46,313 nucleotides of DNA from an uncultured Candidatus Peribacteria bacterium (GCA_964632375.1 CAZWBO010000002.1:1-46313), one strand, 5' to 3'. Counted from the first letter of the stretch, positions 1-38,344 are shown. A program made the numbers and translations. The notes: generated from the sequence alone by a model not told the origin.

Positions 1-23
1 TTCAATTGCTCGATAATGAGAAT

Positions 24-88
24 GGGTGGACGGGGGAAGGTGCCCCGCGGAGCCCGCAGGCGGAGTGGGGCGGATGGGGCCCCTTACA
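24..88. repeat. GC-rich palindromic repeat element, copy A (just 3' of the pcrA stop)
   Basis: The 18-nt block CGGGGGAAGGTGCCCCGC (31-48) is identical to 15459-15476 inside dinB. Two further modules are shared: GCAGGCGG(AG)TGGGGC (56-71) and GGATGGGGCCCC (72-83). The arms GGAAGGTGCCCC (35-46) and GGGGCCCCTTAC (76-87) form an imperfect inverted repeat. Confidence 0.55.
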
Positions 89-137
89 ACATCGTGAGCG
101 GCGCTGCTTAGACAAACTCAGCACGAGACTCGCACAT

Positions 138-3331: not shown

Positions 3332-4591
3332 TTATGCTTCATCAGAAGCCAAAATTTTATGCTTCGCCGCCTCCACCGCCGTCTCGATGAGCGATGCTCG
3401 CACGGCATCCAGATCCGCCGATGCCACCGGTGCGTGCGGCGAGACGAGCTGCTCGATCTCCTGTTCTTGGGTACTGAGCCGCGTGACCAGGCGTTTGATG
3501 TCGGAAACCGAGACCGACGCTTTCGCGTTCATTGGCTGCTTCTTCACCGCCACCTCGGCGGCGAGCGCAGGGTCGACGCGCTGGGTTTTCTGCAGCAGGT
3601 CGGTGCCCATCTTCGAGAGGATGATGTCGGCCGCGTTGCGCAGGTTGATGTGGAAGTCGAGCTCGGCGATGAGCTGCACGATGTTCTCGCGCTGCTGCGG
3701 GTCCATTTGCTCCGCGAACTCGTAGAGCGTGATGCGCTTGAGGCTAGTGAGGATGGCGGGCAGTGCCTCCTGGCTGATGATGAACACCGAGTACCCCTCC
3801 ACGGGGTAGTGGTGGTTCTTCAGTTCGCTCAACGCGTTAGCGGGAACAATGAGGAAGATGGTCTTGTAGATGCGGTCATCGTTCTTCACCTTCTCTACCG
3901 TGTCGGCCACTTGCTTGGTGATGTACGTCTGCAAGCTCTTGGCCTTCGAGACCTTGGCATCGAACACGACGTACTGACCCAGGAACTCCACCATGAAATC
4001 CGGCTTGAGGCTGCCGTCGAACCCTTCCGGCAGGTTCGTGTTGTTGTAGGCGGTGAAAGCGAATTCGGGCTTCTTGCAGAGGTCGGTGAGCGTGGCGATC
4101 ACGCTGTTCTCGTGGTCTGCCCACAGGCGATCGCGCGCTTCTTCCTGCTGCTTCAGGCGGTCTTCGTCCTCGCGGATCACGCGGATGCGCTCCTGCTTCA
4201 GGCTCAGCTCCGCCGCCTCCAGTTTGGCGATGCGGTCCTGGAATTCCGTATCGCGACGATCACGCTCGGCTTCGGTGCGTGTCACGCGGTTCTGCAATTC
4301 CTCGCGTTCTTTTCTGATGGATGCGAGTTCAGCTTCCAAGAGCATGTAGCGCTTGGAAAGTTCTTTCCCTTTCCCTTCCAACTGATTGCGCAGATCGCGT
4401 TCCATCTCGATTTCTTTTGCCATGTGCCCTCCTTCTTGCGTGCGCTGTTCCAAGTGCGCCTTGAGCGTCACGTTCTCTTCGATCAGCTGATTCTTTTCCT
4501 GATCCGTCTCGTTGGTTGGTTTCTGGAACTTGAGAAAATAGAGGACTGCGCCGAAGCCGATGATGACCAGAAGGGGAGTGAGGAGTTCCAT
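3332..4591 (-). CDS. rmuC: RmuC-like DNA recombination/nuclease protein
   Basis: 419 aa. It has an N-terminal TM helix (LLTPLLVIIGFGAVLYFL) and a long charged coiled coil. This is followed by a PD-(D/E)xK-like core (PDFMVEFLGQYVVFDAKVSK), which is the RmuC architecture. Confidence 0.6.
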   Translation of the reverse strand: MELLTPLLVIIGFGAVLYFLKFQKPTNETDQEKNQLIEENVTLKAHLEQRTQEGGHMAKEIEMERDLRNQLEGKGKELSKRYMLLEAELASIRKEREELQNRVTRTEAERDRRDTEFQDRIAKLEAAELSLKQERIRVIREDEDRLKQQEEARDRLWADHENSVIATLTDLCKKPEFAFTAYNNTNLPEGFDGSLKPDFMVEFLGQYVVFDAKVSKAKSLQTYITKQVADTVEKVKNDDRIYKTIFLIVPANALSELKNHHYPVEGYSVFIISQEALPAILTSLKRITLYEFAEQMDPQQRENIVQLIAELDFHINLRNAADIILSKMGTDLLQKTQRVDPALAAEVAVKKQPMNAKASVSVSDIKRLVTRLSTQEQEIEQLVSPHAPVASADLDAVRASLIETAVEAAKHKILASDEA

Positions 4592-4635
4592 AGCGTTCGG
4601 ATGCTAGCGGTTGGTGAACGGATGTTCACTTGCGA

Positions 4636-4719
4636 GTTTGTAGTTTGTAGTTTGTAGTCGGTAGTCGGCAGTCGGCAGTCGGCAGTCGGCAGTCGGCAGT
4701 CGGCAGTCGGCAGTCGGCG
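4636..4719. repeat. 12-unit heptamer tandem array (3x GTTTGTA, 1x GTCGGTA, 7x GTCGGCA, 1x GTCGGCG)
   Basis: Direct reading shows a perfect 7-nt period over 84 nt. The array is immediately followed by TATAAT at 4720-4725. Confidence 0.9.
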
Positions 4720-4900: not shown

Positions 4901-5170
4901 ATGTCCATCAAGCGCACGCAGAAGAAGAAGATCATCAACAAGCACAAGAAGCACGAGAAAGACACCGGCTCACCGCAGGTGCAGATCGCCATCCTCACCA
5001 CCGAGATTTCGCTGCTTACAGACCACTTGAAGAACCACAAGAAGGATCATTCCGCGCGCAAAGGCTTGCTCGCGAAGGTCGCGGACAGGCGCAACCAGCT
5101 GAAGTACCTGGAAATGAACAAGCCCAACGAGTACCAGGAGGTGCTGCAGGCGCTGGGTCTCAAGAAGTAG
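4901..5170 (+). CDS. rpsO: 30S ribosomal protein S15
   Basis: 89 aa with the S15 signature TGSPQVQIAILTTEISLLTDHLKNHKKDHSARKGLLAKV. Confidence 0.95.
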   Translation: MSIKRTQKKKIINKHKKHEKDTGSPQVQIAILTTEISLLTDHLKNHKKDHSARKGLLAKVADRRNQLKYLEMNKPNEYQEVLQALGLKK

Positions 5171-11355: not shown

Positions 11356-14052
11356 ATGCTCCCCAAAGCCTACTCCGCTGGCGACGTCGAAGATCACATC
11401 TACCAGCTTTGGGAGGAATCCGGCGCTTTCACGCCCGATGCCACGAGTAGCAAGGAGCCGTTCACCATCAGCATGCCGCCGCCGAATGCGACGGGGCAGC
11501 TGCATTTGGGTCACGCGGCTCGGGCGACGACGGAAGATATTTTCATTCGGTCGGCCCGCATGCAGGGGAAGGAAGCCTTGTGGGTGCCGGGAACGGATCA
11601 TGCAGCGATCGCGACGGAGAGCGTGGTCATTCGCCTTTTGAAGGAACAAGGAATGAGCGACCCTCGCAAGGAACTTGGACGCGAGAAGCTCGTCGAGAAG
11701 ATCGCCGAATTCGTGGAGCAGAGCCGCGGGACTATTCGTAGTCAGATCCGCAAGATGGGTGCGAGCTGCGACTGGACGCGTGAGCGCTACACGTTGGAGC
11801 CGGCGCTCAACCGCGTCGTGAACGAGATTTTTGCGCGCATGTACGCCGATGGTTTGATCTATCGCGGCCATCGCATCGTGAACTGGGATCCCAAACTGCA
11901 GACGACTATTTCCGATGACGAGATCGCGTGGAAGGAGGAAACCGTGCCGTACTACACGTTCCAGTACGGCCCGTTCCAGATCTCTACGGCGCGGCCGGAG
12001 ACGAAGTTCGGCGACAAGTACGTGGTGATGCACCCGGACGACGAGCGCTACGCGCAGTACAAGAACGGCGACACGTTCGAGGCCGAGTGGATCAACGGCC
12101 CCGTGCGCGCGACGGTGATCAAAGACATAGCGGTCGATCCATCCTTTGGCACGGGCGTGATGACCATCACGCCGTGGCACGATACGGCGGACTTCGAGAT
12201 TGCCGAACGGCATGGGTTGGAGCGCGAGCAGGTCATCGATTTTCAGGGGAATTTACTGCCGATCGCCGAGGAATTCGCCGGTATGTCCATCGAGAAGGCG
12301 CGTCCGCTCGTGGTGGAGAAACTGAAAGCGAAAGGTCTGGTTGTGAAGGTGGATGAGCACTACGTGCACAACAAAGCGACCAGTAGCCGCGGCGGAGGCA
12401 CGGTGGAGCCGCAGATCAAACTGCAGTGGTTCATCGATGTGAATAAGGAATCCATCGCATGGAACGGCAGTGGTGAGCAGAGCCGAAATGGTGAGCGGAG
12501 TCGAACCATGAGCTTGAAGCAGATTATGCACAGCGTGATCCATCACGGCGATATCACCCTCGTCCCTGATCGATTCAATAAAATGTATTTCCATTGGATT
12601 GATAATTTGCGTGATTGGTGCATTTCACGTCAGATTTGGTGGGGGCATCGTGTCCCTGTTTGGTATCGCGGTGATGAGATCCATACAGGTGCGAAGCCGC
12701 CCGAAGGTGATGGCTGGGAACAGGACACCGATACGTTGGATACGTGGTTCAGTTCAGCGTTATGGACATGGAGTACATTGATTGATCCCACACTCGCATT
12801 GGATATGACTGTATCATTTGAGGATTTACTCAAGCGTAGTCCTGATTTTCAGAAATTCCATCCTACCCAGGTTATGGAGACGGCCTGGGATATTATCTTC
12901 TTCTGGGTGGCACGTATGATTCTCATGACCACCTATGCAACGGGTCAGATTCCGTTCAGAGTTGTGTATCTTTCGGGACTTATTCGCGCGAGAGATGGAC
13001 GGAAAATGAGCAAGTCGCACCCGGAAACAATGATCGACCCACTGGAGATGATTGATGACTATGGAACGGACGCCCTGCGTCTGTCGCTTATTCTGGGTCA
13101 GGCCGCAGGGAACGATTCCCGTCTCTACCGAGAGAAAATCGCCGGCTACCGCAACTTCATCAATAAACTCTGGAACGCGTCGCGGTTCATTCTGCTGCAG
13201 TGCGAATCGGCGGCCATCGATCCGCACGAGGTAGAACTGTTTGATCAACAGGGATTAAGCCTGGCGGATCAGGCGCTGCTCTCTGCTCTGCAGGACGTCG
13301 TGGCCGATGTCACGAAAGGGCTGCAAGAGTACAGACTCAGCGAAGTGGGCGAGCGGCTCTACGCGTTCGTGTGGGATTACTTCTGCGATTGGTATTTGGA
13401 ACTGAGCAAAGGCCAGGCCAACTACGCCGTGCTGCTGCATGCTCTGCGGACGATCCTCAAGCTGCTGCATCCGTACTGCCCGTTCGTCACGGAGGAAATC
13501 TGGAGCCACGTGAAGCCGAAGCACGCCGGATTGCTCATTAAAGAGGAATGGCCGTTGGCCGACGAGGCGTGTAAGAATCCATCGGCGTTCGATCAGCTGC
13601 AAGTAGTTATCGACGTGGTCACCGCCATCCGCAAGCTGCGGACGGATCATCAGGTGCCTCTCGAAGCTCGCCCGCTCGTGGTGATCATCACGAAGGATCA
13701 CGCCGATACTCTTCGGAGCCAGGCGGAACAGATCGTGCGTTTGGCGAGAATAGCGAAGCTGCATGTGGAAGATGTCGCTCCCGCAGGAGAAGTGATCAGC
13801 GCTTTCCTCTCGGGCATCGAGGTGCATCTTCAGATGGAGGGATTGATAGACAAAGAGAAAGAGCGCACGAATTTGCAAAAAGAGCAGGAGGGTTTGGAGA
13901 AGTACCGGCAGGGGATCGCGGCGAAGTTGGCGAACAAGCAGTTCATCGAGAAGGCGCCGCACGCGCTCGTCGCCGCCGAGCGGCAGAAATTGGCTGAAAC
14001 AGAAGAGAATCTGGCGAAGATCGCGGATCGCCTGGGAAAACTGGAATCGTAA
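11356..14052 (+). CDS. valS: valine--tRNA ligase
   Basis: 898 aa with HIGH motif PPPNATGQLHLGHA, KMSKS motif GRKMSKS, an editing domain and a C-terminal coiled coil. Confidence 0.97.
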   Translation: MLPKAYSAGDVEDHIYQLWEESGAFTPDATSSKEPFTISMPPPNATGQLHLGHAARATTEDIFIRSARMQGKEALWVPGTDHAAIATESVVIRLLKEQGMSDPRKELGREKLVEKIAEFVEQSRGTIRSQIRKMGASCDWTRERYTLEPALNRVVNEIFARMYADGLIYRGHRIVNWDPKLQTTISDDEIAWKEETVPYYTFQYGPFQISTARPETKFGDKYVVMHPDDERYAQYKNGDTFEAEWINGPVRATVIKDIAVDPSFGTGVMTITPWHDTADFEIAERHGLEREQVIDFQGNLLPIAEEFAGMSIEKARPLVVEKLKAKGLVVKVDEHYVHNKATSSRGGGTVEPQIKLQWFIDVNKESIAWNGSGEQSRNGERSRTMSLKQIMHSVIHHGDITLVPDRFNKMYFHWIDNLRDWCISRQIWWGHRVPVWYRGDEIHTGAKPPEGDGWEQDTDTLDTWFSSALWTWSTLIDPTLALDMTVSFEDLLKRSPDFQKFHPTQVMETAWDIIFFWVARMILMTTYATGQIPFRVVYLSGLIRARDGRKMSKSHPETMIDPLEMIDDYGTDALRLSLILGQAAGNDSRLYREKIAGYRNFINKLWNASRFILLQCESAAIDPHEVELFDQQGLSLADQALLSALQDVVADVTKGLQEYRLSEVGERLYAFVWDYFCDWYLELSKGQANYAVLLHALRTILKLLHPYCPFVTEEIWSHVKPKHAGLLIKEEWPLADEACKNPSAFDQLQVVIDVVTAIRKLRTDHQVPLEARPLVVIITKDHADTLRSQAEQIVRLARIAKLHVEDVAPAGEVISAFLSGIEVHLQMEGLIDKEKERTNLQKEQEGLEKYRQGIAAKLANKQFIEKAPHALVAAERQKLAETEENLAKIADRLGKLES

Positions 14053-14218
14053 TATTCTCAGAATCCGGATTCTTGCGTACCCTCAGCAATAGTTTTCACG
14101 TTTCCGGTGATAGTTGAGGATGAATCGTCGGTCCGCCTCTTCTCTCTGTCTTCTGGTTTCTCACTTCTGTCTTCTTCTCCCATCGAGGGCACGATTCTGC
14201 TGCGCAGACAAAAATCTT

Positions 14219-14253
14219 TTGACAGTGAACGACCGTCCACCTACACTGGTGTA
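14219..14253 (+). promoter_or_regulatory. candidate lexA promoter with overlapping palindrome (possible LexA operator)
   Basis: TTGACA (14219-14224), a 17-nt spacer, then TACACT (14242-14247). The palindrome TACAC-TG-GTGTA (14242-14253) overlaps the -10 box. Confidence 0.35.
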
Positions 14254-14275
14254 CGAACGTTTCCCCCCACGCCGC

Positions 14276-14887
14276 ATGTCTCTCACCCCCCACCAGCGCA
14301 CGGTTCTCAGTTACATCGGCGAGTTCCAGCACAAGCGGGGCTACTCGCCCTCGCTGGCGGATCTGGCCATTGCGTTCGGCGTGCGGAGCAAGAACGCCAT
14401 CGCGAAGGTGGTGAACGTCCTCACGCGCGACGGGCACCTGGAGAAAGATCCCAAAGGACGTATCAAGATTCTCGAGCGCGCGGAGGAAGCAGTACAGGCG
14501 GCCTTCCGGCCTCTTTCCCTTCCGCTTTTCGGTCCCATCTCGGCCGGTTTCGCGGCTCCGGTGGAGGAGCAAGCCGAAGAGACGGTGACGCTGGAGGATT
14601 ATCTCGTTCGCGATAAAGCCGCCACGTTCCTCCTGCGCGTGAAGGGCGACAGCATGATCAATGCTGGCATCCAGGAAGGGGATTTAGTCATCGTCGAGCG
14701 TGGCGCTCCGCCGAAGGTGCACGATATCGTCGTAGGTGTCCTCGATGGCGAATTCACGCTCAAACGCCTGCGCAAAGAGAAAGGCCGCTACTTCCTGCAG
14801 GCCGAGAACGACGCCTACCCGGATCTCTACGCCATGGATGAGCTCCAGGTGGCGGGGGTGGTGAGAGGCGTCATACGAAAGTACTAG
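14276..14887 (+). CDS. lexA: LexA repressor
   Basis: The ORF track starts at 14114. The conserved protein starts at the ATG at 14276 (MSLTPHQRTVLSYIGEF...). It has an N-terminal winged HTH and an S24 peptidase domain with GDSMINAGI and FTLKRL (Ser/Lys dyad). Confidence 0.9.
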   Translation: MSLTPHQRTVLSYIGEFQHKRGYSPSLADLAIAFGVRSKNAIAKVVNVLTRDGHLEKDPKGRIKILERAEEAVQAAFRPLSLPLFGPISAGFAAPVEEQAEETVTLEDYLVRDKAATFLLRVKGDSMINAGIQEGDLVIVERGAPPKVHDIVVGVLDGEFTLKRLRKEKGRYFLQAENDAYPDLYAMDELQVAGVVRGVIRKY

Positions 14888-14935: not shown

Positions 14936-16196
14936 ATGATTGCTCATGTGGATGCGGATGCTTTTTTTGCATCAGTGCTGGTGCGGAAAGATCCCCGATT
15001 GCAAGGAAAGCCGCTGCTGGCTCTCGGTATGGGTGGAGGGTGTGTCATCGCCGCGAGCTACGAGGCGAAGGCCAAAGGAGTACGCACGGGCATGCGACTG
15101 ACTGACGCTTTGAGACTCTGTCCCGAGGCGCTGAAAGTGCATTCCGATTTCCGCGAAACAGGCCTCGCGTCGGATCAGATCGTTTCGATCATCGAGGAAC
15201 ACTGTCCGTTCATTGAGCAGTTCTCCATCGATGAGTGGTTTCTGGATCTCACGAGCCTGGTCGGCGGCGTGCCGGGGGATCTGACGGCATGGGCGACGCA
15301 TCTGCGACAGGAGATTCTAAAGCGCACTGGTCTCTCTGTGTCGGCGGGAATCGGCGCATCGAAGCTGTTGGCGAAGATGGCGTCGGAGTACCGCAAGCCT
15401 GGCGGTGTTACAGTTGTTTTGAATGATTCCTCCTTCCCCGGCAGGCAGGCGGTGGGGCCGGGGGAAGGTGCCCCGCAGGGCGGAAGGGGCCCTCCTCCGA
15501 GAAACCTTCCTCCGCGACCGCCCCGCCGCCGCCATCCCGGGCATCGGTCCGCGTCGGCTCGTGCACGTGGAGCGATTGGGATTAAAAACAGCGTGGGATA
15601 TCGCCATGGCGAATAGTGCCGTCCTCAAGCAGTACTTCGGGCAGAACGGCGTGGAGATGCAGCGTGAACTCTTGGGTGAACGCTTGTCGCCGGTGGCGCG
15701 CTCGTCGGCGTCGCCGAAGTCGGTCTCGCGGGCGCGGAGCTTTCCGCCATTGCGCGATCGTGCGGTGCTGTGGGCGCATGCGTTGCGACATATGGAGTAC
15801 ATCGTGCTCAAGATGCGCCGCCAGGATCTCGCGTGCCGAGGAGCGTCTCTCTGGCTGCGCGACGACCGCTACGGGTACGAGAGCTCGCACGTGTCGCTTC
15901 CGCAGCCGTTCGATACCGAAGATCACCTGCGCCCGTACGTGGAGCGCTGCTTCCGGCACCTGTACCGGCAGGGATACGCCTACACCCAAGTGGGTCTGTC
16001 GCTGTGGAACCTGTGCCCGCGAGGTGGACAACAGTTCTCGCTGTTCGAGCATCCTCGCGTGCTTCTGGAGCGCGAAGCGCTTCAGAAATCTCTGGATACT
16101 GTGCACGAGCGTTTCGGGCGCGATGCCGTTACCCGAGCGTCGGCACTAAGGGTGAAGAGTGGAACGAAGAAAGATGTGCCGTGGTGGGAGATGTAG
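14936..16196 (+). pseudogene. dinB: DNA polymerase IV (Y-family, DinB) with interrupted reading frame
   Basis: The N-terminal half is in ORF 14936-15616 (MIAHVDADAFFASV, SIDEWFLDL, SAGIGASKLLAKMASEYRKPGG). The C-terminal half is in ORF 15423-16196, in the +1 frame (ETFLRDRPAAAIPGIGPRRL...). The switch lies inside a ~70-nt GC-rich palindromic insert. This could be a true pseudogene, a 1-nt assembly error or recoding. Confidence 0.8.
15428..15497. repeat. GC-rich palindromic repeat element, copy B (inside dinB)
   Basis: CCTTCCCCGGC (15433-15443) pairs with GCCGGGGGAAGG (15458-15469). The 18-nt block 15459-15476 is identical to 31-48. The insert is flanked by TCCTCC at 15428-15433 and 15493-15498. 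Confidence 0.65.
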
Positions 16197-17284: not shown

Positions 17285-17339
17285 GGGGGGATGATACAGG
17301 GAGGTGGTGGGGCGTTCTAAGAAATTGGAGGTGCTACGC

Positions 17340-17472
17340 GAAGATTCCAAGACTGCAAGACTTCAAGATTGCAAATCCTCCTACACCGTCATGGTGAGGC
17401 GCGAGCCGCAGCGAGCCTCGAGCCATTGGCGTTTAGTTTGGCTTATTGCAGTCTTGCAGTCTTGGGATCTTC
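17340..17472. repeat. 133-nt TIR-bounded octamer-repeat element (CAAGACTG family)
   Basis: The left end GAAGATTCCAAGACTGCAAGAC (17340-17361) and right end GTCTTGCAGTCTTGGGATCTTC (17451-17472) are inverted repeats with one mismatch. The interior block TTTGGCTTATTGCAGTC is shared with 23790-23901. Confidence 0.8.
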
Positions 17473-18999
17473 CCTCAGGAGTCGCGGGATCGCCTGGTAC
17501 CGGTACTCTTTCCCCAGCAAAATTGTGATAGTGCCGAGGCCCGTTTGGTCGAGCTCAGGTGGCGGTGTGGGCGCAACCGGAATATGGAGGAGATTGCTGA
17601 AGAACGGCGCCAGAGTCTGGCCGGTGCCGGCGCGCGCGACGATCATCGAGCTTTCTTGGTCGGGAATATTGCCGTTGCGGATCTCGTTGAGGTCGAGGCC
17701 GAAGCGGATGAAGTCGCCGGCCAGTGCGCGGGCGTGGCCGCTGGGCGCGCCGGCGTTGAGCACGTCGATGGTCGGATGCTGCAGGAGCACGTCGCGCTGA
17801 GTGAGGAAGAACTGCGTGAAAATGCGTAGAGGTTCCCACGTTTCCATGCCGCTGTAGGGCAGGGGCAGCAAGACGAACGCGCCGCCGAAGTTCTCCATGG
17901 GTGGCGTGTAGAGGAAACCGCCGGCTTCCGACGCGCCGGTGCCCTGGCCGTTCACGTTGTTGATCTGCACGTTGAGGATCTTGTGGCGGTCGATCTCGGT
18001 GCCGAGCTTCGCGGCGCCGACCATCTCGCGCAGCGACATGGTGGTTTCGGTGTTCGTGTTGACGGTATCCCAGAGCGACATAAGGGTCGAAGGGCTCGAG
18101 AGGATGCCTTTCTCCTTTGCGCGCTGCGCGAGTGCGGCCACAATCTGCTGCTGACGCGCAGAGCGGCTGAAGTCGCTAGTGGAGTGGCGGCTTCGCGCGT
18201 ACTTCAGCGCTGTTTCGCCGTCCAGGTGCTGCGGGCCGGCGGCGATGCTGAACGTGACGTAGGAGTAGTTCGGGCCGGGGTATGTGGTGTCGACGATGGC
18301 CGTGGGTACGTCGATATCGATACCACCGAGCGCATCCACCGCGTTCACGAACCCAATGAAGTCGACCTTCACCACGTAGTGGATTTTCACGCCGAACGTG
18401 TCACCCATCTCGCGGGCCAATTCCTTCATGGCTTCCTGCGATGCGGCATTCTTGTCCATGCCTTGCTTGCGCAGGTAGCCCTTGTAGTCGCGATACAGAC
18501 TGTTGACGCGCCCTGCGCCCATTTTGCTCGTGCGGGTGAAATACAGATCGCGCGGAATCGAGATCATCGCCACACTCTTCGTCTTCGTCGCATCGACGCT
18601 CGCGATCATCATGGTATCGGTGAGATTCGCGCCCTGGTGCGATTCGTCGCCCTGGCCGAGCAGCAAAAAGTTCGTGTAGCCGTGCTCGTCGGTGGGCAGT
18701 GTGGAGCCGACGGTGTTGATGATGCCCTTGAGCGTGACGATCTTGAAGTCGAACAGGGCTTTTGCCACGCCGGCCATCAGTAGAAGGGCGAGCAGTATCG
18801 CGATCATCGCGATGCCGATGCGTCTGAGGATCGACTTGCGATGTTCTTTCACCTGCTCTTCCGCCCGTTCTTTGCGATGACGACGGAACCACGCGACGAG
18901 CGGGTAGCCGAATTGCAGTGCAAACAGGGTGTACTTTTGCCACGGGAATTTCTTGCGAGGAGCACGGTACTCACTCACACGTCGGGTCGTGAAGGACAT
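17443..18999 (-). CDS. LytR-CpsA-Psr (LCP) family protein
   Basis: The ORF track gives 17443-19119, and the ATG at 18999 (MSFTTRRV...) precedes a TM helix. The LCP core is LLLGQGDESHQGANLTDTMMIASVD...ISIPRDLY, with a C-terminal LytR_C-like domain. The last ~8 codons and the stop lie inside the repeat element. Confidence 0.85.
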   Translation of the reverse strand: MSFTTRRVSEYRAPRKKFPWQKYTLFALQFGYPLVAWFRRHRKERAEEQVKEHRKSILRRIGIAMIAILLALLLMAGVAKALFDFKIVTLKGIINTVGSTLPTDEHGYTNFLLLGQGDESHQGANLTDTMMIASVDATKTKSVAMISIPRDLYFTRTSKMGAGRVNSLYRDYKGYLRKQGMDKNAASQEAMKELAREMGDTFGVKIHYVVKVDFIGFVNAVDALGGIDIDVPTAIVDTTYPGPNYSYVTFSIAAGPQHLDGETALKYARSRHSTSDFSRSARQQQIVAALAQRAKEKGILSSPSTLMSLWDTVNTNTETTMSLREMVGAAKLGTEIDRHKILNVQINNVNGQGTGASEAGGFLYTPPMENFGGAFVLLPLPYSGMETWEPLRIFTQFFLTQRDVLLQHPTIDVLNAGAPSGHARALAGDFIRFGLDLNEIRNGNIPDQESSMIVARAGTGQTLAPFFSNLLHIPVAPTPPPELDQTGLGTITILLGKEYRYQAIPRLLREDPKTARLQ

Positions 19000-22049: not shown

Positions 22050-22215
22050 GAGTCTTGAATTTTGAGTCTTCAAGAGCGATAAGCGGATAGCGGATAGCGG
22101 ATAGCGATAAGCATCTTGCTGAGGATTGCTTCAAGCCTGAGTGCCATCTCTCATTTGCAGTCTTGCATTCTTGCAGTCTTGCAATCTTTCGTTACCGGCC
22201 CTTCAAGATTCAAAA
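22050..22215. repeat. ~165-nt composite dispersed repeat, copy 1
   Basis: Layout: GAGTCTTG-type inverted end, GCGGATA heptamers, the ~45-nt core GCTGAGGATTGCTTCAAGCCTGAGTGCCATCTCTCATTTGCA, TTGCAGTC/TTGCAATC octamers, then a CAAGATTC end. It aligns by eye at roughly 90 percent with 26297-26460. Confidence 0.85.
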
Positions 22216-22678: not shown

Positions 22679-22712
22679 GAATGGAGAATTGAAAATTGAT
22701 AATGGAAAATTA
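22679..22712. repeat. AT-rich heptamer array (GAGAATT/GGAAAAT family) filling the rplJ-rplL spacer
   Basis: GAATGGAGAATTGAAAATTGATAATGGAAAATTA. The mRNA-sense strand reads TTTTCCATTATCAATTTTCAATTCTCC upstream of the rplL ATG. Confidence 0.7.
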
Positions 22713-23577: not shown

Positions 23578-23789
23578 ACAAAAACGCTGGCTCCGGTTGC
23601 CCGGGAGACCAGCGAGGAACACGGCACGAATCACCAAGCCGAAGCCGAGTGGCCGATGCTGTATTCCTCGGAGGGGCTTATGTCGGTCTGCGACCTTGTG
23701 CCCTCGGTCTTCGGACGTGCGAGAAGTGTAACCATAATTGGGAGGAGGTCAAGGGAGAATGGTAAGAAAGTACCGTAAAGGCGTCTTGG

Positions 23790-23901
23790 GAGAAAAGAAT
23801 TCAAGACTGCAAGAATGCAAGATTGCAAAGAAATCCCAAGATTCGATCTTTTGGTATGTGGTTTGGCTTATTGCAGTCCTGCAGTCTTGAATTCTTTTCT
23901 C
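23790..23901. repeat. 112-nt TIR-bounded octamer-repeat element (CAAGACTG family)
   Basis: Left end GAGAAAAGAATTCAAGACTGCAAG (23790-23813) and right end CTGCAGTCTTGAATTCTTTTCTC (23879-23901). About 22 nt are perfectly inverted. The interior TTTGGCTTATTGCAGTC is shared with 17340-17472. Confidence 0.85.
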
Positions 23902-23928
23902 CGACCGATAAGTGTCTATCATGCTCCC

Positions 23929-26305: not shown

Positions 26306-26460
26306 GTTTTGAAGAGCGATAAGCGGATAGCGGATAGCGGTAAGCATATCGCTGAGGGTTGCTTCAAGCGTGAGTGCCATCTCTCATTTGCATTCTTGCA
26401 GTCTTGCAATCTTTCGTCACCGGCTATTCAAGACTCAAGATTCAAAACTCAAGACTCAGC
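26297..26460. repeat. ~165-nt composite dispersed repeat, copy 2
   Basis: Same modular layout and core (GCTGAGGGTTGCTTCAAGCGTGAGTGCCATCTCTCATTTGCA) as 22050-22215. The left end overlaps the last relA codons, and the right end abuts the tig stop. Confidence 0.85.
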
Positions 26461-26462
26461 CC

Positions 26463-27737
26463 TCATCCCAGCATTTCCACTACGAACTTCTCCACTTTCC
26501 TGCGCCAGCGCAGCTGCTCAAACTGCTCGGTGCCGGGGACGAAGCGGGGCATCTGCGCGCGCTCTTCGGGTGAGGCCGACGCTTGGGTGTCGGCGACGAG
26601 CTTCTCGATCTCCTCGTCCGTCACCTCGATGTTCTTCTGCTTGAGTGCTTCCTCGAGCCCGAACCGCAGCGTGAGGCGTTTGACGGCCTGTTCGCGCATC
26701 TCCTTCTGGAGCGATGCCTCGTCGCGTTGGGTCTGCTGTATCCAGTCTTCGATGGTCGCATTCTGCTGTTGCAAGCGGTCGCGCAGGTCGAGCAGGATGG
26801 CGCGCGCCTCCTGCTCCACGAGCTCGTCGGCGAGTTCCACCTTCGTGGCGTTCACGAGCGCGTCGAAGAGTTCCTCTTCGCGCTTCTGGCTCAACAATCC
26901 CTGCTCTTGCTCCTTCATCGAATCCTCTAACCTTTTGCGCACGTCGGCGGCGGAATCGGCCTGCAAGTTCTGCTTGGCGAACTCGTCCGTCAGTTCCGGC
27001 TTTCTCACTTCCTCCACTTTTACAACCTTCACGTTGAACGTGGCGGGCTTCCCGCGCAGGTGCTCGGCATGGTACTTCTCGGGGAAGGTGATCGAAAAAC
27101 TCTTCTCCTGCCCTTTGCTCAGTCCCTTCAGTTCATCCTCGAAGCCGGGGATCAGCGTCTTGCTGCCGATGACGGCCTGGTAGCCGCTCGAGCGCGTGCC
27201 GGGGATTTCGTTCTTCTGCTCGTCGACACCCACGAAATCCATCGTCACCTGATCGCCCTCGGCGGCGGCGCGATCCACTTCGGTGAGCGTCTTGTGTTGG
27301 TCGAGCACGTAGTCGACCATGCGCTGCACATCTTTCTCGTCCACTTTCGTGTCCTTCTTCTCAATCTTGATGCGATCCAAATTTTTGAGTGTCACCGCGG
27401 GTTTCTCGGCAAACGTCACCTTCACCGTGATCGGCTGCAGGCTCTCGATCTCCACGATCGGCGCGATGATGGGCTTCAGCTGATGCTCCTGCGCCAGCTT
27501 GCCGATCCATTCCGGCAGCAGCAGGCGGACGGTTTCGTCCATCACCGCTTCGTCCTTCAGACGCTCGCGGATCGTCGCAACGGGCGCTTTCCCGGGCCGA
27601 AAACCCGGTACGGACACGTTCTGGCCCATTCGTCGCACGGCGGCTTCCTCGGCTGCGGCGCTCTCCTCCGCGGTGAACGTCAGCCCGAACTGCGTTTTAC
27701 TCTGGGGAAGTTTCTTTGGGTCGGAGATCGTTGGCAT
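26463..27737 (-). CDS. tig: trigger factor
   Basis: 424 aa with the N-terminal ribosome-binding domain motif VPGFRPGKAP, an FKBP-like middle domain and a C-terminal domain. Confidence 0.93.
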   Translation of the reverse strand: MPTISDPKKLPQSKTQFGLTFTAEESAAAEEAAVRRMGQNVSVPGFRPGKAPVATIRERLKDEAVMDETVRLLLPEWIGKLAQEHQLKPIIAPIVEIESLQPITVKVTFAEKPAVTLKNLDRIKIEKKDTKVDEKDVQRMVDYVLDQHKTLTEVDRAAAEGDQVTMDFVGVDEQKNEIPGTRSSGYQAVIGSKTLIPGFEDELKGLSKGQEKSFSITFPEKYHAEHLRGKPATFNVKVVKVEEVRKPELTDEFAKQNLQADSAADVRKRLEDSMKEQEQGLLSQKREEELFDALVNATKVELADELVEQEARAILLDLRDRLQQQNATIEDWIQQTQRDEASLQKEMREQAVKRLTLRFGLEEALKQKNIEVTDEEIEKLVADTQASASPEERAQMPRFVPGTEQFEQLRWRRKVEKFVVEMLG

Positions 27738-27740
27738 GGG

Positions 27741-27775
27741 GAGAATTGAGAATGGAAAATTGAAAATGGAGAATT
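27741..27775. repeat. AT-rich heptamer array, left inverted repeat of the four-helix-bundle cassette
   Basis: GAGAATTGAGAATGGAAAATTGAAAATGGAGAATT. The 16-nt block ATTGAGAATGGAAAAT is identical to the reverse complement of part of 28155-28185. Confidence 0.8.
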
Positions 27776-28127
27776 ACAAGGTGGAACGGGACGTTTTGAT
27801 GATCGCGGTCAGTATGTTGATGATAGCATGGAGATCAGTGCGTAAAGCATCTGTGCTGGCTTCCGCAGTGATTTGCGCGTCCTTGAGGAGACGAAGCCAG
27901 TAATCAGTTTCATGAGATTCTTTGAGGGCGATCGAAAGTTTGGAGATGAAATCCTTCTTACTTTGCGCCTGAAGAGCCTCTTCGACATTCGCTCCGATGC
28001 TTGTTCCCGACTTCAGAATCTGCTGACTCATGACAAACTCCTTTTCCTGAGCAAGTTTTTTAGCAAATTTCACGATGCTCAGAGCAAACGCGTACGTTTT
28101 TTCCTGAATGACGTTCGGCTTCTTCAT
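27774..28127 (-). CDS. four-helix-bundle protein (23S rRNA intervening-sequence protein family, Avd-like)
   Basis: 117 aa with the family pattern ...YAFALSIVKFAKKL...ILKSGTSIGANVEEA...KDFISKLSIALKESHETDYWLRLL. The gene is lower in GC. Confidence 0.85.
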   Translation of the reverse strand: MKKPNVIQEKTYAFALSIVKFAKKLAQEKEFVMSQQILKSGTSIGANVEEALQAQSKKDFISKLSIALKESHETDYWLRLLKDAQITAEASTDALRTDLHAIINILTAIIKTSRSTL

Positions 28128-28154
28128 CTGCTTTACTTATAATGCAAAATAAAA

Positions 28155-28185
28155 TCTTCAATTCTCCATTTTCCATTCTCAATTT
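28155..28185. repeat. AT-rich heptamer array, right inverted repeat of the four-helix-bundle cassette
   Basis: TCTTCAATTCTCCATTTTCCATTCTCAATTT is the reverse complement of AAATTGAGAATGGAAAATGGAGAATTGAAGA. It abuts the secF stop. Confidence 0.8.
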
Positions 28186-31320: not shown

Positions 31321-31365
31321 GAGTCTTGATGGGGAAGATTGCAATCTTGCAGTCTTGCATTCTTT
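31321..31365. repeat. CAAGACTG/TTGCAATC-family octamer array
   Basis: GAGTCTTGATGGGGAAGATTGCAATCTTGCAGTCTTGCATTC, abutting the stop of the TPR gene. Confidence 0.7.
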
Positions 31366-32678
31366 TATCTCATTGTCTCCACCTTCTCCCGCACCTTCTG
31401 CGCCGTCGGGTCCAACTGGAGCGCTTGCTGGTACGCGGCTGTTGCTTCGTCTTTGCGGTCGAGTGCTTCCAGGATCGTGCCGAGGAGTTCGAATGATTTT
31501 GCATCCTGCGGCCAGCGCTTGGTGGCTTTCTCGGCCGCGACGAGCGCGTCCTCCTTCCGTTGGAACCGGAGCGCCGCTGCCGTGAGCGCGGCTGTGTCGT
31601 TCAGCGTGGCGTCCTTCCGTTCGCTCAGCGCGACGTACTGGGACAGCGCGAGATCGATATTCTGCGCCTGCTCCGCCTGGTTCGCCAGAAAGGATCGTAC
31701 TTCCGTCTCGGGTTCGAATCCGTTACTGAGCGCGTACTGCGCGAAGGTGATGGCGTTCTGATGGTCGTTCGCGGCCGCGTAGGCGCGCGCGAGGTAGTAC
31801 TGCGTCTCGGGTTTTTCGGGGTCGAGCGTGTACGCTTTTTCCAGCGAGCGCAGCGCGAGGTCGTACCGCTCGGTAGTGAGCTCGCAAAACCCCTGCACGA
31901 TCCACGCGTCGCGGTAGTCGTCCTGCATGCGCGACACCTGCGCGAGCAGCGGGAGCGCGAGTTCGCACTGCTGCGTTTCGGCCAGCGCGCGCGCGAGGAG
32001 CGTGACGAGGTGAATGTCCGGGCTATCGGGGAACAGCGCGTACTCGTCGTACGCGCCCTGCAGCACTTTTGCGTACGATCGCAGGACAGGGTCCCAGCTG
32101 TTCATCACCTGCGTCAGCTCTTGCTTGGCGGCATCGTGGCTGCCCTGCACGATGCCGATGAGAGCGAGCGCGTAGTGCTTCTGGGGGGATTCCGGCGCGC
32201 CGCCGAGCAGCGTCTGAGCTTTCTGCAAGTCGCCTGCACGAATGTCGAGAATCGCTTCGAGGAGTAACACATCTTCCGGCTTCGCGCCGGCGTCTGTCAT
32301 ACGACGCATCGTGGTGCGCACGCCTTCTGCGTCGCGTCGCTGCAACTGCGCCTGCGCGAGTTTGCGGAGCGCGGGCAGGCCGCCGCCCCGCTTCACCGCT
32401 GTGCCGTACTGATCCTGCGCGGCTTTCCAATCGCCGTGCAGCGCGAGCAGATCGCCCTGCCGTAGCGCGACGAGTGCCTCGTCGCCCGCGTCGAGCGGCG
32501 TGTTGTCGAGCGGCGAGCTTACCGTAGGGGCTTGCGATCCGAACGCCTGCAGGCGTTTCTGCAACGCCAGTTCACTCTGCGTCATCTGCCACCACAAAAA
32601 TCCTACCAAACTGCCGGTGACGAGCAGGGCGGCAACGACCGGCAGCAGTATGCGGGCGGGAAGTTTCATCGGCGCCAA
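31365..32678 (-). CDS. TPR-repeat protein with N-terminal membrane anchor
   Basis: 437 aa with N-terminal TM helix ILLPVVAALLVTGSLVGFLWW, followed by repeated Ala/Leu/Tyr-rich 34-aa TPR-like units. Confidence 0.8.
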   Translation of the reverse strand: MAPMKLPARILLPVVAALLVTGSLVGFLWWQMTQSELALQKRLQAFGSQAPTVSSPLDNTPLDAGDEALVALRQGDLLALHGDWKAAQDQYGTAVKRGGGLPALRKLAQAQLQRRDAEGVRTTMRRMTDAGAKPEDVLLLEAILDIRAGDLQKAQTLLGGAPESPQKHYALALIGIVQGSHDAAKQELTQVMNSWDPVLRSYAKVLQGAYDEYALFPDSPDIHLVTLLARALAETQQCELALPLLAQVSRMQDDYRDAWIVQGFCELTTERYDLALRSLEKAYTLDPEKPETQYYLARAYAAANDHQNAITFAQYALSNGFEPETEVRSFLANQAEQAQNIDLALSQYVALSERKDATLNDTAALTAAALRFQRKEDALVAAEKATKRWPQDAKSFELLGTILEALDRKDEATAAYQQALQLDPTAQKVREKVETMR

Positions 32679-34435: not shown

Positions 34436-34532
34436 GGGAATTGAGAATAGAGAATTGAGAATTGAGAATTGAGAATTGAGAGGTGTCTTGTTGCTGATCA
34501 TTTTCCATTTTCCTTTCTCAATTTTCAATTTC
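34436..34532. repeat. AT-rich heptamer hairpin element (GAGAATT family)
   Basis: The left arm GGGAATTGAGAATAGAGAATTGAGAATTGAGAATTGAGAATTGAGAGG has about 6 units of GAATTGA. The right arm CATTTTCCATTTTCCTTTCTCAATTTTCAATTTC is its imperfect inverted complement. Confidence 0.85.
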
Positions 34533-36897: not shown

Positions 36898-37025
36898 GTA
36901 TCGCACTATTATAGCAAAAAAAGGGGTTTCTCTCAATGTTCGGCATGTATGGATTACTTTACGAGCATTCCATCGTAAAATACCAACTTTTCCGCAATCA
37001 GTTGCGATCAGCTGTATTTCTGCAC

Positions 37026-37056
37026 TTCTCAATTGTCAATTGTCAATTCTCAATTG
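37026..37056. repeat. AT-rich heptamer array (TCTCAAT orientation)
   Basis: TTCTCAATTGTCAATTGTCAATTCTCAATTG, 36 nt upstream of the lipoprotein ATG in sense orientation. Confidence 0.7.
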
Positions 37057-37664: not shown

Positions 37665-37710
37665 CGAGAGAAGAGATACGAGTGCAAGACCGATTGAATA
37701 AAGAATCCTC

Positions 37711-37748
37711 GATTGCAATCTTGCAGCCTTGCAATCTTGCATTCTTCC
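37711..37748. repeat. TTGCAATC/TTGCAGCC octamer array
   Basis: GATTGCAATCTTGCAGCCTTGCAATCTTGCATTCTTCC (period 8), directly adjacent to the 3' end of tRNA-Cys. Confidence 0.75.
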
Positions 37749-37751
37749 ACT

Positions 37752-37826
37752 TGGAGGTGCTGGTGGGAATTGCACCCACGTATGGGGGTTTTGCAGACCC
37801 CTGCCTTACTACTTGGCTACAGCACC
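37752..37826 (-). tRNA. tRNA-Cys (GCA), CCA-encoded
   Basis: The minus strand reads GGTGCTG-TA-GCCAAGTAGTAAGGC-A-GGGGT-CTGCAAA-ACCCC-CATAC-GTGGG-TGCAATT-CCCAC-CAGCACC-T-CCA. It has a 7-bp acceptor stem, a 5-bp anticodon stem, anticodon GCA and discriminator U73 (a tRNA-Cys identity element). The 13:22 A-A mismatch matches E. coli tRNA-Cys. Confidence 0.9.
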
Positions 37827-38305: not shown

Positions 38306-38344
38306 GGAAATTGAGGATGGAAAATTGAACATTGAGAATTATTC
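38305..38344. repeat. AT-rich heptamer array immediately upstream of queF
   Basis: GGAAATTGAGGATGGAAAATTGAACATTGAGAATTATTCC. In sense orientation it reads AATTCTCAATGTTCAATTTTCCATCCTCAATTTCC-ATG. Confidence 0.7.

Follow-up and report, generated by a model that had tools for sequence, protein, structure and literature searches.

Rickettsia palindromic elements (RPEs) are short repeats that lie between genes and also within open reading frames (ORFs), where they are read in frame if the fold tolerates a surface segment (PMC10969869). RPEs are about 100–150 bp in length and form defined families, each with a conserved peptide product, whose members are dispersed among many genes. REP/BIME repeats and MITE-type repeats such as ERIC and Correia are GC-rich dispersed hairpins, which are mostly intergenic and often found at the 3' ends of genes; the hallmarks of RAYT-associated REPs are a GTAG or CGTC tag next to the palindrome and a RAYT gene that goes with it. 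Ribosomes can read across a break in frame by bypass, as in phage T4 gene 60 and the mitochondrial 'byp' GC clusters, which involves matching take-off and landing codons, a stop after the take-off site and a take-off hairpin. They can also do so by programmed +1 frameshifting of the prfB/antizyme type, in which a stimulator acts on a shift site that has a stop or hungry codon in frame, and orthologues conserve the arrangement.

The window analysed here, a complete NCBI contig of 46,313 nt, comes from an organism of the Candidatus Peregrinibacteria/Peribacteria, the group to which all the top homologues of its DinB and ValRS belong. Its dinB gene carries 67 additional nucleotides and is split between two frames. 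We propose, with a probability of about 75%, that these nucleotides are a copy of a two-hairpin repeat in a hotspot loop where inserts are normally in frame, and that the length of this copy, 3n+1 nt, leaves dinB frameshifted as assembled. The closest known phenomenon is the in-frame insertion of RPEs into protein surface positions, since the dinB insert is also a member of a repeat family and forms a disordered surface loop in a structural model. However, it differs from RPEs in phylum, in the types of element, in their concentration on one loop of one gene and in having a frame-breaking copy. The Peregrinibacteria inserts range from 20 to 370 nt and include many unrelated sequences and, whereas all of the 22–23 insert-bearing relatives are in frame in the manner of RPEs, the window copy (67 nt, 3n+1) is not.

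REP and MITE-type repeats offer a second comparison, and their placement at 3' ends is paralleled by two other copies of the module, one at 26–85 of the window and one in another Peregrinibacteria contig (L129). Unlike these repeats, the dinB module has no GTAG/CGTC tag, and no terminal inverted repeats or target duplication were seen; GTAG, CTAC, CGTC and GACG are absent from 15420–15500, and no transposase or RAYT partner of the insert was seen within the window. Its occurrence in unrelated phyla, as a unit of about 45 nt, is also unusual for REPs. With gene 60, byp and prfB the locus shares a short GC-rich insert of non-3n length, two open frames and an essential-looking ORF, but the defining signals of bypass and of prfB-type shifting are absent and the shift is conserved in 0 of 43 relatives. 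The encoded enzyme has the same domain order and catalytic motifs as E. coli Pol IV (DinB) and Sulfolobus Dpo4 and Dbh. However, canonical Pol IV enzymes have a fixed 20-aa spacing at the site of the insert, whereas that of the Peregrinibacteria clade is variable.

The dinB gene consists of two overlapping ORFs, 14936–15616 (226 aa) and 15423–16196 (257 aa), which are one frame (+1) apart and which we refer to as frames A and B. Using Pfam, the palm/fingers domain IMS (PF00817, E=1.9e-41) was found at residues 5–151 of the first ORF and the little-finger domain IMS_C (PF11799, E=7e-17) in the second, which bears out the first-pass annotation in describing a Y-family polymerase divided between two frames. 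The Y-family Pol IV domain order is thus kept (IMS then IMS_C), with a single continuous frame absent across 15428–15494. The 5' part, 14936..15427 on the + strand, encodes the fingers and the palm as far as ...KPGGVTVVLND in frame A and is 84% identical to residues 1–163 of the nearest homologue (P0001). The 3' part, 15495..16196 on the + strand, encodes the thumb and little finger in frame B, beginning LRETFLRDRPAAAIPGIG..., and is 72% identical to residues 182–407 of the same protein. While the palm ends with KPGG-VTVV in frame A, the thumb resumes as FLRDRPAAAIPGIG in frame B, where LRETFL agrees with the homologue consensus (I/R)ETFL. It had also been proposed that both frames are open over the insert, and we confirm this: frame B is open from 15423, after a TGA at 15420–22, with its listed ORF starting at ATG 15423, and frame A has no stop before 15614–15616, remaining open for 190 nt.

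The last codon of VTVV lies at 15416–18 in frame A and FL begins with TTC at 15507 in frame B, so that the two are separated by 88 nt, as compared with 21 nt (7 codons, e.g. EKHQIEA) in homologues that lack an insert, which we call the ground state. The excess is 67 nt (88 = 21 + 67). It is of the form 3n+1, as the first-pass annotation had said of the excess; its estimate of about 6 residues between the blocks in homologues is close to the 7 residues of the ground state. The 70-nt string that it quoted lies at 15428–15497. We set the bounds of the insert to 15428–15494 because the flanking residues L-N-D and L-R-E-T are still native-looking. Apart from the shift in the insert, dinB is without further lesion. 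The catalytic residues D6, D8, D99 and E100 are present and all correspond to invariant alignment columns, as do the motifs HVDADAFF and SIDEW. The predicted product of the gene as assembled is a palm fragment of 164 aa followed by 62 aa of nonsense sequence, the thumb and little finger being left untranslated. The gene for LexA, the SOS repressor, is located directly upstream at 14276..14887 on the + strand (ORF as listed 14114–14887), as had been reported. LexA has the Pfam domains LexA_DNA_bind and Peptidase_S24 and, from the start at 14276, is 91% identical in amino acid sequence over 200 aa to that of the nearest relative, L001.

The insert (15428..15494, + strand) lies in the palm-thumb loop and, on the basis of spacing and an nhmmer profile, is a GC-rich copy of a two-hairpin repeat module. 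Hairpin 1 (15432..15468, + strand) is an inverted repeat with 8/8 complementary arms, CCTTCCCC at 15432–39 and GGGGAAGG at 15461–68, around a 21-nt loop; it includes a C4 run (15436–39), a G4 run (15454–57) and a G5 run (15460–64), and its loop contains a tandem (GGCA)x2 unit, read directly from the sequence at 15440..15447 on the + strand. Hairpin 2, GCCCCGCAGGGC, and a G-rich tail, GGAAGGGG, occupy 15470..15489 on the + strand and match the module part GCCCCGCAGGGGC-GGA(T/A)G(A/G)GGG, with GGG in the window where the module consensus has GGGG. When set against the cross-phylum consensus, the window copy lacks one C of arm 1 and one G of hairpin 2, and regaining both missing bases would give an in-frame length. 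By simple arithmetic, dropping one GGCA unit (-4 nt) would also restore the frame (88 - 4 = 84 = 21 + 63). Read in frame B, the insert translates as PPSPAGRRWGRGKVPRRAEGALLRETFL, including PPSPAGRRWGRGK.

The description of the insert as strongly self-complementary is not confirmed. Although one perfect 8-bp stem, 15432–39/15461–68, is present, dinucleotide-shuffled versions fold at least as well as the insert, whichever strand is taken and whether the flanks are included or not (z = +0.9 to +2.2). The apparent strong self-complementarity therefore reflects G+C content. As to the hairpin-forming character expected of an RPE-like element, the 8-bp stem points one way and a fold z-score of 0 or above the other, while inserts of relatives are strong hairpins. 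As to the TCCTCC repeats said to flank the insert, these are real (15428–33 and 15493–98), but they lie 65 nt apart (3n+2) and excision between them gives the wrong frame; the TTCCTCC repeats are 80 nt apart (3n+2). A target-site duplication was rejected, as excision between either pair leaves the wrong frame, and so was a MITE, as no terminal inverted repeats were reported and removal between the direct repeats does not restore the host frame. Rfam gave no match near the gathering score at 15300–15650 or in the module loci scanned, and an intron, intein or known structured RNA was also rejected, there being no Rfam match and 67 nt being less than either an intein or a group I/II intron requires.

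That the insert belongs to a repeat family is evident from its other copies, at 26–85 of the window, in a Peribacteria MAG contig (L034) and in L129, with copy number appearing low in the 46 kb of genome seen. The copy at 26..85 (+ strand) is intergenic, at the contig start and 3' of a UvrD/PcrA-like gene (138–2612, - strand). It shares with the dinB insert an exact match of 18/18 nt (CGGGGGAAGGTGCCCCGC; BLAST E=6e-5 for this seed alone) and a colinear 14/15 block, has an nhmmer E of 0.007, and corresponds to the 3' two-thirds of the insert. The same copy is about 75% identical over about 87 nt to the non-syntenic site in L034. We note that the contig starts within a module copy (window 1–90), which suggests that the repeat family broke the assembly at this point and that the genome has more copies than the window shows.

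GTDB genomes were then scanned with a 23-base pattern taken from the insert, and more than 117 stretches matched among the matches listed. These include, again among those listed, MAGs of Oscillospiraceae and other Clostridia with many copies per genome, and Xanthomonas and other Lysobacteraceae, Alphaproteobacteria, Planctomycetes, Geomonas, Selenomonas and Peribacteria. Outside the pattern itself the matches share a 5' arm CCTTCCCCC, a short loop, a 3' arm GGGGGAAGG, a T, the hairpin GCCCC-GCA-GGGGC and the tail GGA(T/A)G(A/G)GGG, with the match to hairpin 2 and tail being seen in more than 100 loci among those listed. The window insert carries all four module parts, with the loop enlarged to 21 nt. 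We also observed that the module of about 45 nt, CCTTCCCCC-loop-GGGGGAAGG-T-GCCCCGCAGGGGC-GGATGAGGG, has nearly the same sequence in all of these groups, and that some Oscillospiraceae MAGs contain it as the 5' portion of a dispersed repeat of about 330 nt with dozens of copies. An nhmmer profile built from the cross-phylum module matches and run on 333 kb of Peregrinibacteria DNA identified only four copies, namely the dinB insert (15439–15494, E=3.6e-5), window 27–83, L034 and L129. The L129 copy is part of a cloverleaf-like element (4195–4280) directly after the dinB stop codon of that contig, in which an outer stem GCCCTCACCC/GGGTGAGGGC surrounds three hairpins, one of them being the repeat module. 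The proposal that a small element had been inserted into dinB thus gains weight from the second copy at 26–85, the copies in other Peribacteria contigs and the distribution of the module across phyla, and from this pattern of sequence matches the module may be mobile, although the finding of only four copies in the 333 kb counts against this.

To place the insert in context, 119 Peregrinibacteria DinB clusters were aligned to a ground-state member and internal insertions of at least 6 aa were counted. Fifty of the 53 insertions fall at one site, between TVVEKH and TIETFL, with three elsewhere, and comparable in-frame inserts in the same DinB loop are present in about 40% of related bacteria. 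Across the clade the palm-thumb loop varies from 5 to 129 aa, and the KPxG-to-PGIG segment from 19 to more than 140 aa. By comparison, all 36 distant metagenomic DinB loci have the fixed 20-aa spacing and no insert, and from this uniformity the insertion hotspot appears to be specific to the Peregrinibacteria clade. The ground-state homologues with 21 nt also supply the empty site that a comparison of dinB in related genomes had been expected to reveal.

The inserted sequences differ between lineages and have no mutual relationship. Near-perfect hairpins (z = -3 to -6) are found in the closest relative, L001 (10 bp), and in L121 (14 bp), L149 (24 bp) and L155 (13 bp), while L147, L158, L160 and L123 have one-armed arrays of 7-nt units. 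The insert of L122 is identical over 27/27 nt to an intergenic site of L001 and over 23/23 nt to an 11-aa insertion in the window ValRS, and that of L158 is of the AATTGAGAAT heptamer type, a family abundant in the intergenic regions of the window. Thus, of the idea that orthologues might carry the same segment in frame, the in-frame inserts at the same loop are borne out, but the segments themselves are different and unrelated. Second copies of the homologues' inserts were essentially absent from their own 3–10 kb flanks, and the empty sites of 15 ground-state loci, when examined for a shared target sequence in the DNA, showed nothing beyond coding constraint. Microhomology between the FL codons (TTCCTC) and a module arm was considered as the cause of the hotspot and rejected, as the FL codons vary (TTCTTA, TTTTTG and others). 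A CHPE..EG...HHDTF-type insert, apparently a different widespread hairpin module, occurs at the same loop in P0005, P0016, P0049, P0058 and L122, with two CHPE..HHDTF copies forming the 129-aa loop of P0058.

We compared the reading frame at the DNA level in 43 related loci, using a list that reached weak distant matches, so that split genes would not have been filtered out. In all 43 the gap from VTVV to FL is a multiple of three, and 22–23 of them carry inserts; if insert lengths were random modulo 3, the chance of all being in frame would be about (1/3)^22. This in-frame spacing argues that selection keeps insert-bearing dinB genes open and that the inserts are probably translated. Moreover, the frame B reading of the window insert is in the same style as that of in-frame relatives, e.g. 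P0087 (SPVPSPAGGRGVAEGRGEG). An in-frame insertion that is off by 1 nt had been one of the first-pass suggestions, and with 43 of 43 relatives in frame it finds support as the typical and presumably ancestral state, although for the window dinB itself the in-frame ancestry is inferred.

We also modelled the repaired protein, in which frame A is followed to ...LND and then frame B, using AlphaFold2. The model has a mean pLDDT of 88.7 and places the insert between a strand (158–162) and a helix (188–194), where residues ~163–184 are coil with a block pLDDT of 52–74, the rest of the model being at 90 or above. In the model the repaired protein is thus an ordinary Pol IV to which a disordered loop has been added, and the predicted structure is consistent with an insert at a surface position compatible with the fold. 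Between a ground-state Peregrinibacteria DinB and E. coli Pol IV (4IRC) the alignment is free of gaps over KPxG...FL...IPG(I/V)G. From the domain boundaries of Pol IV and Dpo4, we take the segment that holds the insert to be the palm-thumb junction.

In our proposal, a copy (67 nt) of the dispersed GC-rich module lies in the solvent-exposed loop between the palm strand (VTVV) and the first thumb helix (IExFL). Short hairpin or 7-mer repeats would have landed in this loop of Peregrinibacteria DinB repeatedly and independently, normally staying in frame and being translated as a floppy extra loop, so that the polymerase would remain functional. The window insert is off by one base (3n+1), and dinB as assembled is frameshifted. 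Since the gene shows no damage elsewhere, it can only have been inactivated recently, if at all, and the shift either arose a very short time ago or is not real. The candidates for its cause are a tandem duplication of GGCA (4 nt) at 15440–47, a 1-nt indel in the C4 (15436–39) or G5 (15460–64) run, and an assembly or consensus error in the repeat.

Within this proposal, one possibility, to which we give nearly an even chance, is that the frameshift is real and that dinB was lately inactivated in the lineage or the dominant strain by a small indel within the insert. In that case the organism would have no Pol IV translesion or mutagenic capacity unless a second copy exists. This is the sequence as given, and the (GGCA)2 duplication whose removal restores the frame, together with the mononucleotide runs, is a plausible mutational signature. 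No such fault is seen in the rest of the assembly: for each of 17 other genes in common with the locus of the nearest relative, the alignment keeps to one frame, which indicates that the assembly is not generally indel-prone. However, the frame is so strongly conserved in other dinB loci as to imply selection for function, which would make a loss unusual, and dinB shows no secondary decay.

A further possibility, substantial though short of even odds, is that the frameshift is an artefact of sequencing, assembly or consensus, and that the genome has 3n extra bases and an intact dinB with a 21–23-aa Gly/Pro/Arg loop. The same 43 in-frame loci are consistent with this, as is a gene otherwise unlesioned and 84% and 72% identical to its nearest homologue over its two halves. 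Moreover, the insert is a GC-rich, repeat-derived region with C4, G4 and G5 runs, and another copy of the module lies at the contig end, where the assembly broke. Against this, the 17 other window genes without a frameshift point to an assembly that is generally accurate, the homopolymer runs are short (at most 5 nt) and the shared 18-nt repeat is shorter than typical assembler k-mers. The exact sequences of ORF A and of the window ValRS had no matching locus that might represent an independent assembly, the nearest relative in ValRS being 80% identical.

In-situ expansion or low-complexity drift, in place of the insertion of pre-existing repeat elements, is an improbable origin for the variable loop; its resemblance to other repeats would then be compositional. 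Such an origin may be consistent with the lack of second copies of most homologue inserts in their 3–10 kb flanks, with the window insert forming no significant hairpin and with the in-situ tandem duplication in ValRS, but it does not account for the exact 18–27-nt matches between inserts and unlinked intergenic repeats, nor for a four-part module architecture common to more than 100 loci in other genomes, and the perfect 10–24-bp stems in relatives are not made by drift.

A more speculative reading, which we regard as very doubtful, is that the palm-thumb loop does more than tolerate inserts and may have been selected, or be actively targeted, as a landing pad for repeat modules that are prone to slippage. 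The homopolymer runs, GGCA tetramers and 7-nt tandem arrays of such modules may alter the frame with each unit, dinB may be a contingency (phase-variable ON/OFF) gene that this contig has caught in the OFF state and, as a related suggestion, the module of about 45 nt may be an undescribed pan-bacterial mobile or structured element.

Recoding, also raised in the first-pass annotation, in which the ribosome would shift +1 or hop over part of the insert to make full-length DinB, is scarcely credible. In its favour, both frames are open over the insert, which contains CCC-G (15437–40) and the G5 run as candidate +1 slippery sites, such CCC-G and G-run sites being classical low-level ones (tRNA-Pro slippage), and there is a matched codon pair (TTC 15434 in frame A, TTC 15507 in frame B). 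Against it, the shift is needed in 0 of 43 related loci with nothing conserved, no stop or hungry codon follows a candidate shift site and frame A stays open for 190 nt, there is no significant RNA structure, the TTC 15434-to-TTC 15507 hop, the sole frame-restoring pair, deletes the conserved LRET and has CCC rather than a stop as the next codon, and a TCC-to-TCC landing gives the wrong frame. Spontaneous low-level +1 slippage at CCC-G or the G5 run, which is not a programmed mechanism, is possible.

If a normally in-frame repeat copy has indeed shifted the frame of this dinB, then the SOS-linked translesion polymerase would be non-functional as assembled, with one base deciding, and we infer that dinB is currently inactive. 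Taken alone, this is a fairly ordinary 1-nt problem. The wider significance lies in one DinB surface loop having absorbed dozens of independent, unrelated hairpin and repeat insertions, all kept in frame elsewhere. The clade hotspot can be viewed as a natural experiment in how selfish or structural DNA repeats turn into protein sequence, an idea reportedly first raised for the Rickettsia RPEs, and it also bears on the limits to where such insertions survive. For annotation, there is a warning that Gly/Pro/Arg-rich 'PSPxGRG' segments are translated repeats and that frameshifts inside them may be repeat-associated errors. A full-text literature search for the module sequence found no paper, and the literature on Peregrinibacteria and palindromic or hairpin repeats yielded nothing relevant; in the literature searched we thus found no description of a clade-specific hotspot in a mutagenic polymerase or of the cross-phylum 45-nt module.

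The window contains several other kinds of repeat. Nearly all local perfect hairpins lie between genes and resemble terminators. Long hairpins built of 7-nt units fill the intergenic regions and fall into two families, TTGCAAG/TCTTGCA and AATTGAGAAT; they lie at 17333–17485, 22153–22213, 23787–23902, 26388–26465, 31328–31389 and 37701–37763, with further sites at 22680–22712, 27730–27776, 28153–28184, 34439–34530, 37023–37055 and 38309–38341. These heptamer families also serve as in-frame dinB inserts in other Peregrinibacteria, e.g. L158. Inside valS (11356–14052), an 11-aa insertion relative to the nearest orthologue, SGEQSRNGERS, is encoded at 12469–12510 by two tandem 18-nt units. It is the second in-frame repeat-derived insertion in the window, having 23 nt identical to part of the L122 dinB insert, and the L122 segment in common with it also matches the L001 intergenic site. 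About 14 tandem 7-nt units, grading from AGTTTGT to AGTCGGC, are present at 4621–4718, with the S15 gene (4901–5167) on one side and, on the other, two ORFs that end near 4657. Finally, a tRNA at 37755–37826 (- strand), which is the only Rfam match at gathering score in the window, abuts the heptamer hairpin at 37701–37763.
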